From Escherichia coli (lineage in GTDB: Bacteria; Pseudomonadota; Gammaproteobacteria; Enterobacterales; Enterobacteriaceae): a DNA stretch of 64,000 nt. Each line of letters opens with the position of its first letter. Positions within the stretch are counted from its first letter, which is position 1. Position numbers: made by a program. Below are positions 30,001 to 36,000 of the stretch, one piece after another. The DNA is taken from the NCBI RefSeq assembly GCF_003018255.1, contig NZ_CP027440.1; one strand, written 5' to 3'.

Positions 30001-33000
30001 AAACGCAATGTCATACAGCTTGTTCGTGTATGAGGAGTTCAGCTCTTTCATAATGGGGTACAGGTGTTTGCTGATGCCCTGGGCTTTTTCCATCCAGAGC
30101 TGCATGTAGCAAAGGAGGATGATTTCCTCGGCTGTGAATTGTGGCTGAATATGCGACTGCTGTTCGGTTTGTGTTGTTTTTCCCTGGCTGAAATAGCAGT
30201 CTTCCAGTTTTTCGAACACTTCCCATGCCTGATCAGTTTCGAGCATTTTTGCGTGACGGGCTGCTCCGCGTTCTGTCCAGAGGATGAGGGAGCGAACGTT
30301 ACGGGCGATTTTCACAGAAGGTCTTAAAGACATGCTGTGCTTAAATTCGCGCAACTCCTCATTCTCAAGTAAAAAGTAGTGCTTACCGATAACAAATCGT
30401 CCAGAATTCCGATTGAAATTTTTTCGGATGTAATCTGGTTCTGTGCCATATAAGCTGGCAAGAAGCTCTGTAGTCACCACAGGTATATTACTAAATGAAA
30501 TTATGGAGAGGGACTCCACGGAGATGGTTTTCATGCTTTGTGTCCTACTTGATATTTTGATTTACCCCTTTTGAGAGGGTGACCGGGCGCTCAAAACCGC
30601 AAGTAGTCGGCGGGCATATTCCCATTGCTGGTATTGTATTAGCCGCACGCCCGGTCATAAACCAAGAAGACTGGACACAAAAAAACCGCATGTCTGTCGG
30701 GCGCGGTAACCGCTACTTGCTAAGGTGTTTTGAGCACCTGACGCAGAGTATCCGACAGAATGTGTGGTGTGTCAACATTTCCTTGTGTAGATGTTGACAC
30801 CCTATTAGGTAAAACATTAACGTTGTTTTAATTTGTTAATAATCATCAATTTAATATTAATGTTTGGAGTATAAAAGCATGAGAAAATCCCCTTTGGCAT
30901 GGTATACGGATGTTCTTTTTAATAACTACTTCAATTATTCAGGGCGAGCCAGTCGAAGAGAGTTCTGGTGGTATTATCTGTTTAATTTAATATTCTTGGG
31001 AGTTCTTTTTTTTATCGGATATACATTAGATAATACTGGCATTAGTTATGGGTTTTATATACCTTGCGTTTACGTATTAGCTACGATTATTCCATCCATT
31101 ACATTGAAAGTCCGCAGACTCCATGATATTGGGTTAAGTGCCTGGTACTTGTTTATCTGGTGCATCCCGTATATTGGTGGCTTTATATTGTTCGTTATGT
31201 ACTGTATCCCGTCAGAAAAAGGGGATAATAAATACGGTGCATATAGTATTTAATCCCCGCCAGATAGTCGCATCAAAAAGTACTGGTTATCTTATCTATT
31301 AGATCAAATGTCTTCTCATCAATGTACCAGTACTTTTTATCATCATTTGGGTATTCAACGAAAACCGTCCATAAAACCTCTTCCTTTTTAATGAAAGATA
31401 AAAGAAAAGTCTCTATATCCTTTGAATTGTCTTTGGGAATAACTGTAATAAATGAAGTCCATTTTTCCAACTTTTTACTTTTTATCTGTTTGGCCTCCTT
31501 AGGTAGAAAAATTTTAGCATTTGATTCACGTTCCAGTCGGTCTAATAATTGTTTGGCATATATATCAACAGGAACACTTATGTCACTTGCTTTATGACGT
31601 AATTCAATAGTTGGTGTATACTCGTTCGAAAAATAGAAAACACCATCACTGGGTGATGTTATCAGAGTCTTTTCTAAATATGTGTATTTGTATGTTATTG
31701 GATTAAACCAATAACAGTACCATTCTGGCTTTAATTGCCCGCTATAAGATGTGTTATTATTGTGAACCTTACACACAGGATAAATGTTTTCTATATCAGT
31801 CCACTTACTTTTATCCTCTTTTTTTTGTGTGTCTATGACGTTTGAGGAGTGTTTTTGGTTGAACACTTGAATATTTAAAAAAACTAAAAGTATGTTTCCG
31901 ATAATAGATGCAATAAGCATTTTCTTCAGTTTTGAGTTATCCATATGCATCCCCTTCATTGTGGACAATTACTCTTTGTCATAATTATAACTAAGTCATT
32001 ATATTTCGTGTTTATTATGTTATAATGATATTTGAATGTATAATTATACTCCTGCATCATTTTACACTCGCCAGAATTTAATTTTTTTTGTATTTCTAGG
32101 CTCATTAAGTTTTTAATCTCTTCACCATCAAAAAATGGCGACATATCTTCATTAATCCCATAAATATTATAATAATGATTAAGTGTATTTCCTTCTACGG
32201 TTGCAGCAATCCATGTAGTATAATCATCTACTTTAATAGGGAATTTTTTCTTGGATAGTTCATTTTTTAAGCATGAGGCAATTTTATCTGCATCTTCTTT
32301 GTTTGATAAAATATCATCAATTTTATTATCACCGAACTCAGTTGCAATTATCTTTACAAAGATCAGCAGAATAATAAACATTAATGCTGCTCCTGTTTTT
32401 TTTATTGCTCCTAATATTTTGTTTCCTGTCATCTTGCAAATCTAACATAAAATTTAATGAGTCTTATTAATAAATTTAATTTCTTATGAGTTGTCAACCT
32501 TCCATCAAGCAAACCGTGATCTAACAGCATGACTGTCTGCTTGATATGTGTTGTCGTCAACACAGTACAGTCCTTGAATACATATAACAAATTTGTTATG
32601 TTGATACCTATGAACTACACTATCGAATACTACAGTGAAGAGGTCCGGCTGGAAGTCGATCAGCTTCCATTGAGTATGCGTGTCCGATACAAACATCTCA
32701 TTGAACGTATGAAGGTATACGGCAGCAATCTCGGAGAACCTCATACCAGCGCCTTTGGTGATGGGCTTTTCGAACTCAGAATTAAAGGCAACGATGGGAT
32801 TGCACGTGTTTTTTACTGCACTCTGACAGGGAAACGCATCATTATGCTGCATAGTTTCATTAAGAAAACGCAGAAAACACCGCCAGCCGAACGCAAAAAA
32901 GCTGAAGCCAGAATGAAGGAGGTTAAGCATGACTGGTAAACGCATTACACCTACCATGACACACGACGAAATGGCAGCCAAATGGATGGAGGATCCGGCT

Positions 33001-36000
33001 TTCAAAGCAGAATACGACGCCATCGCCGACGAATTCGCACTACTTGATGAAATGCTGGCAGCACGAAAAGAAGCAGGCTTAACCCAGGCTGAAGTTGCTG
33101 AACGTATGGGAACAAAAGCGACTGCGATCACCAGAATGGAAAGCAATCTTGCATCAGGTATAAGCGGCCCATCATTTGCCACACTGAAAAAATTCGCCCG
33201 TGCTACAGGGAAAAAACTCCAGATCCGCTTCGTTTAACTCTCCACTACCGCGCCGTCATTCTGGCGGCGCTTTACCCCAGAGAAATATCAATCACCGGAT
33301 TGCCACATCCCACTCCGGCTCCTGCCATCTCAAATCCGGTGAATCATTTCTCACCGGAATAACCATTACGTCCTTTTCCCTCCGCTCCCTTTCTATCGCC
33401 ATCACAGCCAATGCTGCAACCATGATGTATTTTTGTTCGTCGGTTCCTGTTTCATAACGACGCATGAGGGTAAACTCGGGGCGATCAGTAACCTCAATGA
33501 TTTCGTTAATTTCTTTAATTTCGAGAGGAATATCCATGAGTTTAGTCTCCTTTGACATTACATGCCCACACTGTTTAAAAGAGCGAGCTGTTATTGAGGC
33601 ATTTGCCGAAAAACAAATTGAAAAAACACCTCTTTTTAACGTCGCTTTTGTATGCAGAAGTTGTCATCGAGGAGGTGTTGCTATTGTTGAAATCCCATCA
33701 GACCACTATCACGGCCCCATGGCGGAAAGCCAGAAAAAAGACCTCGATATTCTGATTTCAGGAAATAGCCAGTACCGTTTCCGCAAGATCTATCCTGCGG
33801 TCAAAAAAATTACCGCACCAGAATATACGCCCCCGGTTGCAGACCGTACTTTTGTTGAGGCAAAAGAGGATTTACAGAGGAGGCGGTACGACACAGTGGT
33901 AATTCTTTGTCGCAGAGTCCTCGATATCTCCACGAAAAAACTGCTCGGCGATGAAGCAGGAAAAGAATCGCTGTCGCAACGTATTCAGATGATTTACAAA
34001 AAAGGGCTGATCACTGAACAGATGAAGGAATGGGCTCATATTGTACGAATTGATGCCAATAAAGCAGTTCATACAGATGAAGTTTTCACACCAATTGAGG
34101 CAAGCCAGATCCTGAGTTTTACCGAAATGTTTTTAGTCTACGCCTTCACTCTGCCTGCAATGGTGGCAGCCAGACGTGAACAAAAAAGATCAGATTCAGC
34201 CTCTATATGAATCACTTTTCTGAACACGTAAGCCCCCGTCATTCACGACGGGGAGAACATCAATCCCTCTGCACTCCCCCGCCAGAATGCCAGCACACGC
34301 TGCATCGTTTCGCTGTTACGGCACTCGCGACAAATTATGTTGTAGCGTCTGTCGTAGCGCCGGATTTCCCCATCAGGTAATGCCCGGATAAGACCAGGGT
34401 CAATAACAACCGGTTTCTTTGCCTTTGCTCTCGAGAGTTTTTTGCGGGCATTTTGCCAGTCCTTACGCGCCTGATCAGACGGGAATAAACCATAACCTGA
34501 GTCGAATATAGCGCCACTGACAACCAGTTCTCTGGACAAACGTCTGACAGCTGTCTTGCTGACTCCGGTTTCAGTAGCCAGTTGCCTGAACGTTCCCCGA
34601 CCATTCAGGCGCACGAGCTCCACAATACGTGCCTTCAGTTCTTCCCGCTGTTCGGGTGTAAATACTTTTGCCATAAGCTCTCCAGTTATCACTTTTCCGA
34701 TGCAATACTGCTGGATGAATCGGTAATCTGCATGACAAGTTCCCGGTGTTTATTCAGCTCACGTAGTGCAGCACAGACACGCTCCCACTTCTGGACCTGT
34801 TTTTTGGCGCGACGAAGTTCACGACTGGCGGCCCGTAGAGGTGGAAGGGTCACTGCACCAGCATATTTTTCGGTGAACGACGGAACATCCCGGATAAACT
34901 CATCTGTACAGGCCTTTGCCGTGCCCTCTGACATCAACGGAAAACGATTCAGTTCGTCGCCTGACGCGCTGTTTTCTGCTTCGTGTGTGATATTCTCATC
35001 CTGCGATGATGACGCGCTCAAATCGCCGTTTTCGACGTCAGGCACTTTATAACGGAATTTTCCCTTGATAGACACGCGCACCAGGCGCCCCGTTGCTGTT
35101 ACTACCGCCAAAGTGGAAGCAACCTTACGAGTGGTAACTCCGAACTTACCCGCTATTTCTTCACAGGTTTTAGCCCCCTCCTGAGCGATAAACTCAATCA
35201 TCATGTCAGCGCTAACTTTTGGAGCGACCTCTTCGGTTACCACATCCGGCGCTTCAGATTGTAGTGCCTGCCCTTCGGTTACCCCGGATTCACCTTCGAC
35301 AGCCAGAAACCAGGTGTGACCCGTTTTATCAACAACACCATTTTTTTTGAGTTCCCACAGTTCGTTGAGAACTTCTTCACGGCTGATATCAAGCCGCGCC
35401 GCCAGTTCAACAGAATTGGCTTTACCCATCGCTTTCAGTGCATGCAATACGGTTTCCATCGAAAATTTACCTCGTCAAAAATTCTCACATACCCTGACGC
35501 CCAACGTTTGACCGCCAGCTCTCCCAGTTAAAATTCACCCAACGACCACCGTTCATGGTCATACGGTCCATCACCCGCTCGCCGAGGAGTGTGCTCATCG
35601 CTGCGTGATTCAGGTTCGTCAGCATCCCGACACTGCGCAGTGATGCCGTTCTGCGGTCGACGATCTGGTTCAGTATGACCTGCTCGTTGCGCGTATCCCG
35701 CTACATGCCAATTTCATCCAGGACCAGAAGGTCAACTCCACAAAGCTCCTGTAAAAATTTCTCACCAGACTTGCCGTTGTCGTAGCCGTCATGCAACACA
35801 CTCATGACATCGGACACGGTGACGATAATCACGCTTCTCCCCTTCGCCATCAGCCGATTACCAATCGCTGCTGCAAGGTGATTTTTCCCGGTGCCAGGTT
35901 TACCGCTGAACACGAAATTCGTGCAGCCGGTATGCAGCTCTGCCGCGATGGATTTTGCCTGACTCAGAGCATGGCGCTGACCGTCGTTCTGCACCCGGTA

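Follow-up and report, generated by a model that had tools for sequence, protein, structure and literature searches.

A toxin-first HigBA-kind module and its predicted palindromic operator in an Stx1a prophage of Escherichia coli

INTRODUCTION

Do two small overlapping genes in the nin region of a Shiga toxin prophage form a toxin-antitoxin (TA) module, and where would such a module bind its own repressor? The question arose for a 64,000-nucleotide stretch of Escherichia coli contig NZ_CP027440.1 (RefSeq assembly GCF_003018255.1), called the window here, in which an initial annotation made from the sequence alone had described a HigB/RelE-like toxin gene followed by a gene for an XRE-family helix-turn-helix (HTH) antitoxin, and had proposed an inverted repeat upstream of the pair as the autoregulatory operator, with prophage stabilization or abortive infection as possible roles of such modules. 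RefSeq already annotates a RelE/ParE-family toxin and an HTH protein at these positions, and the record of phage PhiR5_2 names the corresponding pair HigB/HigA. A literature search found no paper on this module or mentioning a TA module in φPOC-J13, the phage that the surrounding prophage resembles. The explanation that best accounts for our results overall, and in which we have good confidence, is a type II module of the HigBA kind, self-contained and inserted at 32543 to 33270 in the nin region of an Stx1a prophage, with a palindrome as its probable operator that is distinct from the repeat first proposed.

RESULTS

A Gp49-type toxin gene followed by an XRE antitoxin gene

The first gene (32610 to 32939 including the stop codon, plus strand) encodes a Gp49/HigB-type protein of the RelE fold, 109 amino acids long and beginning MNYTIEYY. 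Its basic character, remarked on in the initial annotation, was confirmed by a computed isoelectric point (pI) of 9.5 and by 20 lysine and arginine residues against 14 aspartate and glutamate residues. The sole Pfam match of the protein is Gp49 (PF05973; E value of 2e-25, model positions 3 to 90 of 90), and a match to PHROG 2523 spans residues 1 to 109. A search for homologues returned 3187 matches, all of them with PF05973 and with a modal length of 109 to 111 amino acids; the N terminus MNYTI is conserved among homologues in a family alignment of 24 sequences. When PDB sequences were searched, the best match was the HigB chain of the Streptococcus pneumoniae HigBA complex 6AF3, and with a profile built from 24 homologues the match to this HigB rose to an E value of 3.6e-9 and Mycobacterium tuberculosis HigB1 was also matched. 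The AlphaFold2 (AF2) model of the toxin (mean predicted local distance difference test [pLDDT] of 90.6) has two N-terminal helices, β-sheet strands within residues 46 to 84, and a long C-terminal helix at residues 92 to 108, a modeled shape typical of Gp49-type RelE-fold toxins. The top Foldseek matches to this model were S. pneumoniae HigB (6AF3/6AF4), with template modeling (TM) scores of 0.74 to 0.77, and M. tuberculosis HigB1 (7AWK/7NBU), with TM scores of 0.72 to 0.76, followed in rank by YafQ, RelE, YoeB, and Vibrio cholerae HigB2.

The second gene (32929 to 33237, plus strand) encodes a protein of 102 amino acids, identified as the antitoxin by its HTH_3 domain, its PDB match, and its homology to gp48 of phage N15. 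The protein is split by charge, with residues 1 to 43 being acidic (pI 4.3) and residues 44 to 102 being basic (pI 11.0), and the XRE HTH occupies residues 44 to 98 (Pfam HTH_3, E value of 9e-11). Its best match among PDB sequences is the HigA chain of 6AF3 (E value of 1e-3). The best PDB matches of the two proteins are therefore the two chains of one complex, which supports the HigBA pairing. An AF2 model of toxin and antitoxin fused through a linker, computed with an alignment paired by locus, gave a predicted TM score (pTM) of 0.77, with antitoxin residues 7 to 36 at pLDDT values of 91 to 97; this model fits an antitoxin whose N-terminal region folds onto the toxin.

The two reading frames overlap by exactly 11 nucleotides (32929 to 32939), as first described. 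We collected 85 related loci, 80 of them on contigs representing one genome per species and drawn from many Beta- and Gammaproteobacteria. An antitoxin homologue lies immediately downstream of the toxin gene in 83 of the 85, the two exceptions being contigs that end after the toxin gene, and the overlap between the genes is usually 4 to 17 nucleotides. The pairing is above chance. The toxin-first, HigBA/Gp49-like layout within a prophage that had been recognized at the outset thus drew support from Pfam, from the 6AF3 matches, from the fold, from the pocket residues described below, from conservation of the pair, and from homology to N15, and the identity of the pair as a TA system of the HigBA kind, in the Gp49 or Tad-Ata subfamily, is by these sequence comparisons very probable. 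One close relative, the prophage of E. coli JNEC-KY176 (our locus L005), carries an extra gene labeled HigA family addiction module antitoxin (L005 positions 3852 to 4157) directly 3' of the module antitoxin, and this extra gene appears to be an orphan second antitoxin.

The start codon of the toxin gene has been placed elsewhere in several records. The Prokaryotic Genome Annotation Pipeline (PGAP) begins the protein in some E. coli genomes at ATG 32598, for a length of 113 amino acids, and RefSeq phage records begin it at ATG 32676, for a length of 87. We rejected both, since the MNYTI N terminus and the length of 109 to 111 amino acids are conserved and the PHROG 2523 match extends from residue 1; the first of the two also lies inside the predicted -10 element described in the next section. 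The 87-amino-acid toxin stands in NC_025434.1 and NC_029120.1 (L001 positions 9277 to 9540), and the same records carry, on the opposite strand, a 63-amino-acid "hypothetical protein" (L001 positions 9106 to 9297) over the promoter and the 5' end of the toxin gene; this antisense coding sequence is probably spurious, because conservation in the family favors the 109-amino-acid start. In PhiR5_2 (L002 positions 3806 to 4132) and E. coli SCU-104 (L003 positions 3061 to 3387), the codon at the conserved toxin start is ATA, not ATG, and PGAP picks an upstream ATG inside the predicted -10. The toxin and antitoxin of this variant are 70% and 90% identical, respectively, to those of the window, which suggests recombination within the module and, possibly, lowered translation of the toxin.

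A conserved palindrome inside the predicted promoter

The upstream regions of 83 nonredundant loci were aligned at the stretch that best fits TAACA-N4-TGTTA in each. In the window, this motif forms the core of a perfect 16-bp palindrome, ATAACAAATTTGTTAT, at 32584 to 32599; the 64 kb hold only one other perfect 8+8 palindrome, at 27179 to 27194. Of the 83 loci, 56 match the core at all 10 positions and 82 at 8 or more, always at a fixed position. Within the window the exact core is unique, and across 451 kb of related loci 58 of its 60 occurrences fall less than 60 nucleotides upstream of a toxin start.

The palindrome core lies inside the 17-nucleotide spacer of a predicted promoter of the form TTG...TGnTAnnnT and overlaps its extended -10. 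In the window, the predicted -35 is TTGAAT at 32574 to 32579 (plus strand), recognized by the conserved TTG at fixed spacing, and the predicted extended -10 is TGtTATGTT at 32594 to 32602 (plus strand), with the TG at 32594 to 32595 and the hexamer at 32597 to 32602, in agreement with the family consensus TGnTAnnnT. Across the loci, the TTG is present in 58 to 63 of 83, at a fixed 17 nucleotides from the -10, and is invariant in the close relatives; in TGnTAnnnT, the G, the T, and the A are each found in 83 of 83, and the final T is found in 82. Neither the TTG nor the final T has a counterpart across the palindrome, so a -35 and an extended -10 account for them where the palindrome does not. 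This predicted promoter rests on conservation across loci, not on a generic sigma-70 scan.

Where the half-sites depart from TAACA and TGTTA, they do so symmetrically, as TACCA..TGGTA in 3 loci and as TAGCA..TGCTA in 3 or 4, and they covary with the predicted recognition helix of the antitoxin. At its start and within it, this helix reads GST...VSRLED or MN...V(V/I)SRLE in the loci with variant half-sites and MGTKA...A(V/I)(A/T)R(L/M)E elsewhere. A serine variant of the helix is found in 7 of 9 loci with a variant operator versus 1 of 73 with the canonical one (Fisher P of 7e-8, uncorrected for shared ancestry). Conservation and covariation together make it likely that the palindrome at 32584 to 32599 is the operator of the antitoxin.

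An experimentally mapped relative offers a precedent for this placement. The V. cholerae higBA2 operator consists of one inverted repeat, which begins just past the -35 and covers the -10 (PMC11006873); this is the layout that we predict for the present module. The sequence and the spacing of the two operators differ, TGTACGC-N5-GCGTACA in V. cholerae versus TAACA-N4-TGTTA here. The V. cholerae operon is likewise toxin first, and its antitoxin has a toxin-binding N-terminal region and a C-terminal XRE-HTH dimer; HigB2 itself, however, is a weak structural match to the present toxin (TM of ~0.53) and gave no phmmer sequence match.

The upstream 6-4-6 dyad

The operator put forward at first was a different sequence, a perfect 6-4-6 dyad, GTGTTGtcgtCAACAC, and the same module could in principle be autoregulated through it, as main or auxiliary operator. 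The dyad is indeed present and perfect, at 32548 to 32563, with its 3' end 46 nucleotides upstream of the toxin ATG and 21 nucleotides before the start of the palindrome; the start of 32555 originally given for the element is about 7 nucleotides off and falls inside the dyad. It also holds the TGTT/AACA core of the conserved half-sites, but in everted orientation, and it is kept in one close E. coli variant. As an operator, however, it did not hold up, for both its frequency and its conservation are those of a chance repeat retained only in near-identical relatives. Across the whole window there are 25 such perfect 6-4-6 repeats; allowing other spacers, as 6-N(0-10)-6, raises the count to 304 (0.475 per 100 nucleotides), and 49% of shuffles of the 177-nucleotide upstream region hold at least one such repeat. 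Among all loci, the exact dyad GTGTTG-N4-CAACAC is confined to the identical phage record (L001) and the near-identical JNEC-KY176 prophage. None of the 80 loci of other genera has it, and other close E. coli variants have a degraded right arm, CAACTA or CAACAT, and a distance from dyad to promoter that differs by 5 nucleotides. The window has a tandem ACAGT ACAGT (32561 to 32570) where KY176 has a single ACAG, a 5-nucleotide duplication that alters the spacing between dyad and -35.

Position argues in the same direction. Numbered from the predicted transcription start, the dyad occupies -62 to -47; being upstream of the -35, it would not occlude RNA polymerase. A second upstream operator was not found as a family feature either, the TAACA and TGTTA 5-mers between -150 and -40 numbering 1 to 4 per 10-nucleotide bin versus 0.8 expected, with counts from -100 to -40 slightly above background and at no fixed position. 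We regard regulation through the dyad as unlikely, and the dyad itself as a doubtful part of the module that is probably not an operator, and we retain the palindrome within the promoter as the predicted binding site.

Translation of the two genes and a proposed mechanism

The start codon of the toxin gene stands at a nearly constant distance from the promoter. Counted from the last base of the -10, the offset is 7 nucleotides in 41 loci, 8 in 22, and 6 in 7, together 70 of the 76 loci in which the toxin gene has a standard start codon; the window has an offset of 8 nucleotides, which is where the transcription start is expected. A Shine-Dalgarno-like tetramer precedes the toxin gene in only 2 of 85 loci, and the toxin gene of the window has no Shine-Dalgarno sequence. 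From this offset and the rarity of a Shine-Dalgarno sequence we infer a leaderless or near-leaderless toxin mRNA, a conclusion that the alignments favor somewhat over its converse. The antitoxin gene, in turn, is preceded by the Shine-Dalgarno sequence AAGGAGG at 32916 to 32922 (plus strand), which lies in the last codons of the toxin gene (..MKEVK..) and 6 nucleotides before ATG 32929, and most of the related loci have an A(A/G)GGAG motif ahead of the antitoxin gene. Toxin residues 101 to 106, a conserved R-M-K-E-(V/I)-K encoded in the window by AGA ATG AAG GAG GTT AAG, are thus also the Shine-Dalgarno sequence of the antitoxin, and conservation of this C-terminal motif may reflect protein and RNA constraint together.

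These features would combine into the following mechanism. By homology, the toxin would be a RelE-fold, ribosome-dependent mRNA endonuclease. As in characterized relatives, the acidic N-terminal ~40 residues of the antitoxin would wrap around the toxin and neutralize it, and a dimer of the C-terminal XRE-HTH would bind the palindrome ATAACAAATTTGTTAT. Because the palindrome fills the spacer and overlaps the extended -10, the bound antitoxin or complex would block RNA polymerase and so autorepress the operon. Judging from the conserved geometry, transcription would start at the toxin ATG or 1 nucleotide before it (32609/32610), so that the toxin would be made from a leaderless mRNA and the antitoxin from a strong internal Shine-Dalgarno sequence, and synthesis would be biased toward the antitoxin despite the toxin-first gene order. 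Loss of a labile antitoxin would then free the toxin, again by analogy with characterized relatives.

The catalytic pocket and comparison with known systems

M. tuberculosis HigB1 belongs to a toxin-antitoxin-chaperone (TAC) system and has been solved on the ribosome, with roles assigned to the residues of its catalytic pocket (PMC9098466). In a hidden Markov model alignment, HigB1 residues E66, R68, R77, F93, K95, Q98, and K99 correspond to E55, R57, R66, F83, K85, Q88, and K89 of the present toxin, so that 7 of 9 pocket residues are identical; all of these except Q88, which varies, are invariant in the 24-sequence family alignment. The two toxins share the Gp49-type RelE fold with its long C-terminal helix. 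The HigB1 system differs in being tripartite, with a SecB-like chaperone. No third co-directional gene, and no chaperone gene, is found beside the present module, the next open reading frames (ORFs) being a minus-strand 88-amino-acid ORF and a DUF4145 gene, and the module is therefore not a tripartite TAC.

The nearest known systems are gp49/gp48 of phage N15, whose gp49 is the namesake of Pfam Gp49 (PF05973), and the Tad-Ata modules of Paracoccus pAMI2 and of SXT. The present toxin is 45% identical to gp49 (E value of 1e-25), and the antitoxin is 38% identical to gp48 (E value of 2e-15); in N15 as here, the toxin gene comes first, the genes overlap or abut, the antitoxin is an XRE-HTH protein, and the carrier is a temperate phage. 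N15, however, is a linear plasmid-prophage, in which a stabilizing role is obvious, whereas the present element sits in an integrated lambdoid prophage. N15 gene 49 also differs in having a normal leader with an AGGAGG Shine-Dalgarno sequence and no TAACA-N4-TGTTA palindrome, so that the architecture described above is a trait of the present clade and not of all Gp49 modules.

S. pneumoniae HigBA (6AF3/6AF4), the best sequence match for both proteins and the best fold match, shares the E-x-R, F-x-K, and QKTP motifs of the toxin in alignment. It differs in its low identity (~20%), in a toxin with ~12 extra N-terminal residues, and in being a chromosomal system of a Gram-positive organism. With the classical HigBA systems of plasmid Rts1 and E. 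coli K-12, the module shares the reversed gene order, an HTH antitoxin, and the logic of a ribosome-dependent RelE-fold toxin. A Pfam scan of the toxin gave no match to the classical HigB family PF05015, only PF05973, and Gp49-type toxins have been described as having little similarity to classical HigB proteins (PMC5906591).

Observations weighing against the proposed module and the remaining alternatives

Several observations speak against parts of the scheme set out above. A generic sigma-70 scan called no promoter at the toxin start and none on the plus strand inside the toxin gene; the hexamers of the window are weak (TTGAAT/TATGTT, 8/12), and it was this score that caused the scan to miss the -10. 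The P value for covariation of helix and half-sites carries no correction for phylogeny. At the conserved toxin start, 15 related loci have GTG, a codon that initiates leaderless messages poorly in E. coli, and an extra upstream promoter may yield a transcript with a leader. The toxin-antitoxin complex is backed indirectly, through the modeled fusion. HigB1 residues K58 and N73, which contribute to its toxicity, are replaced by S47 and D62 in the present toxin, and the closest NCBIfam model, the equivalog TIGR02683 (upstrm_HI1419 RelE/ParE toxin), matches residues 39 to 90 only, at 21.3 bits, well below its cutoff of 62.85. Some Gp49 proteins, M. tuberculosis HigB2 and HigB3, are moreover nontoxic (PMC9098466).

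The last of these points leads to the possibility that the pair is not a working TA system at all, the HTH protein being a phage or host transcription regulator and the Gp49-like protein a nontoxic partner or co-repressor. Besides the nontoxic paralogues, the PHROG 2523 label of "unknown function" would suit such a reading, as would the ATA codon at the toxin start of PhiR5_2- and SCU-104-type prophages, an apparent tolerance of a change that may lower toxin translation. It is nevertheless quite improbable. The equivalents of F93 and K99, which are lost in the nontoxic M. tuberculosis paralogues, are invariant here, as are those of the E/R/R/K residues; the toxin is 57 to 89% identical across genera, a mark of strong purifying selection; and its homologues in N15, gp49/gp48, are described in PMC5906591, with reference to Dziewit 2007, as an experimentally validated stabilizing TA system. 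That the same proteins form a system with a ParE-like gyrase poison or a ribosome-independent RNase is very improbable, for although RelE and ParE share a fold, ParE2 structures appear low among the fold matches, and the RefSeq protein name is "RelE/ParE family," every top match, whether by sequence or by fold, is to an mRNA interferase (HigB, YafQ, RelE, or YoeB) while ParE stays at TM scores of ~0.5 and E values of >0.01, the basic and acidic residues that are conserved fit the catalytic pocket of ribosome-bound HigB1, and a 2025 survey assigns ribosome-dependent mRNA degradation to the gp49 family (PMC11980606).

PADLOC gave no full-length defense-system match for toxin or antitoxin; the toxin match was partial, with residues 49 to 99 aligning to the C-terminal end of NsnC (positions 233 to 283 of 293), and the antitoxin had weak generic HTH matches. 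Neither PADLOC nor NCBIfam placed the proteins in a family beyond generic assignments.

Prophage setting and extent of the module

POCJ13 and 75/02 Stx, two Stx1a-converting phages of Shigella, match the region at 99.8% identity, and the window carries a φPOC-J13-like lambdoid prophage of the Stx1a type. Window positions 50000 to 56000 are core chromosome of E. coli and Shigella (ynfM-mlc-clcB), so that the prophage is integrated, and the integration site reported for φPOC-J13, ynfG/S1742 (PMC4193171), agrees with an integrated prophage here. On one side of the TA module lie the replication genes and on the other the nin/Q/stx genes. Those neighbors are all on the minus strand, and the TA genes, on the plus strand, run antisense to the phage early-right operon.

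A related copy of the module was found in 96 of 5426 complete E. coli genomes, all copies being chromosomal and located in lambdoid nin regions with differing neighbor genes. In diverged E. coli prophages (84 to 92% identity, with other flanking genes), similarity begins at window position 32543 (query position 144), and in the copies whose flanks differ most it stops at 33270 (query position 871). These limits define a two-gene module on the plus strand, running from promoter to terminator-like hairpin, at 32543 to 33270. Since the limits hold with different neighbors and the right end falls at the hairpin, the module behaves as a mobile cassette. At 33250 to 33270 (plus strand), RNA folding found the hairpin GCGCCGTCAttcTGGCGGCGC, with TTTA next after it; the hairpin coincides with the right-hand limit and has a 9-bp stem and a z score of -4.5, and 0 of 200 shuffles folded equally well. 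The terminator scan made no call there because the U tract is weak. An Rfam scan gave no match within the module.

Other apparent insertions lie nearby. Just 3' of the module is a 248-amino-acid ORF (33464 to 34210, plus strand), also directed against the early-right operon, which related records label as a DUF4145 domain protein or a "DNA binding" protein and which resembles a second independently transcribed insert beside the TA module. On the 5' side, between the antirepressor gene and the module, are a DUF805 membrane-protein ORF (30864 to 31253, plus strand) and two AT-rich hypothetical ORFs (31273 to 31968 and 31956 to 32432, both minus strand); all three are missing from other carriers of the module and so represent further nin-region cargo. 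In the rest of the window, the stx1 genes map to approximately 25448 to 26674 (minus strand) through collinearity with POCJ13. Rfam placed the small RNA (sRNA) STnc100 directly downstream of stxB, at 25165 to 25367 (minus strand; 164.7 bits versus a gathering score of 47), and sRNA-Xcc1 in the interval separating the DUF805 ORF from the antirepressor gene, at 30573 to 30656 (minus strand; 79.6 bits versus a gathering score of 53).

DISCUSSION

The module itself is routine, being a RefSeq-annotated member of the Gp49/Tad-Ata branch of HigBA systems. The 109-amino-acid start corrects the 87-amino-acid toxin annotated in RefSeq and, with it, a probable spurious antisense gene. The only part for which we found no description is the conserved layout in which promoter, operator, and leaderless start are fused. 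Extended to the whole clade, which is widespread in proteobacteria, this layout would be a unit of ~37 bp in which the right half-site, TGTTA, doubles as the extended -10 TG and the first two bases of the -10 hexamer, transcription starts on the toxin AUG, the toxin is always leaderless, and the antitoxin is made from the strong Shine-Dalgarno sequence in the MKEVK codons. We put this forward tentatively, at a confidence just short of even.

If it is true, the layout would be a hard-wired answer to the need for antitoxin excess in toxin-first operons, and read-through from pR upon prophage induction, running antisense across the module, could tip the balance of toxin to antitoxin. The toxin-to-antitoxin ratio of toxin-first operons was posed as an open question in a study of Acinetobacter baumannii higBA (PMC5906591), and the promoter/operator/leaderless-start layout offers a precise model for that ratio in toxin-first HigBA operons. 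The host prophage is Stx1a converting and has spread into Shigella flexneri and S. sonnei, and a working addiction or exclusion module could aid its persistence.

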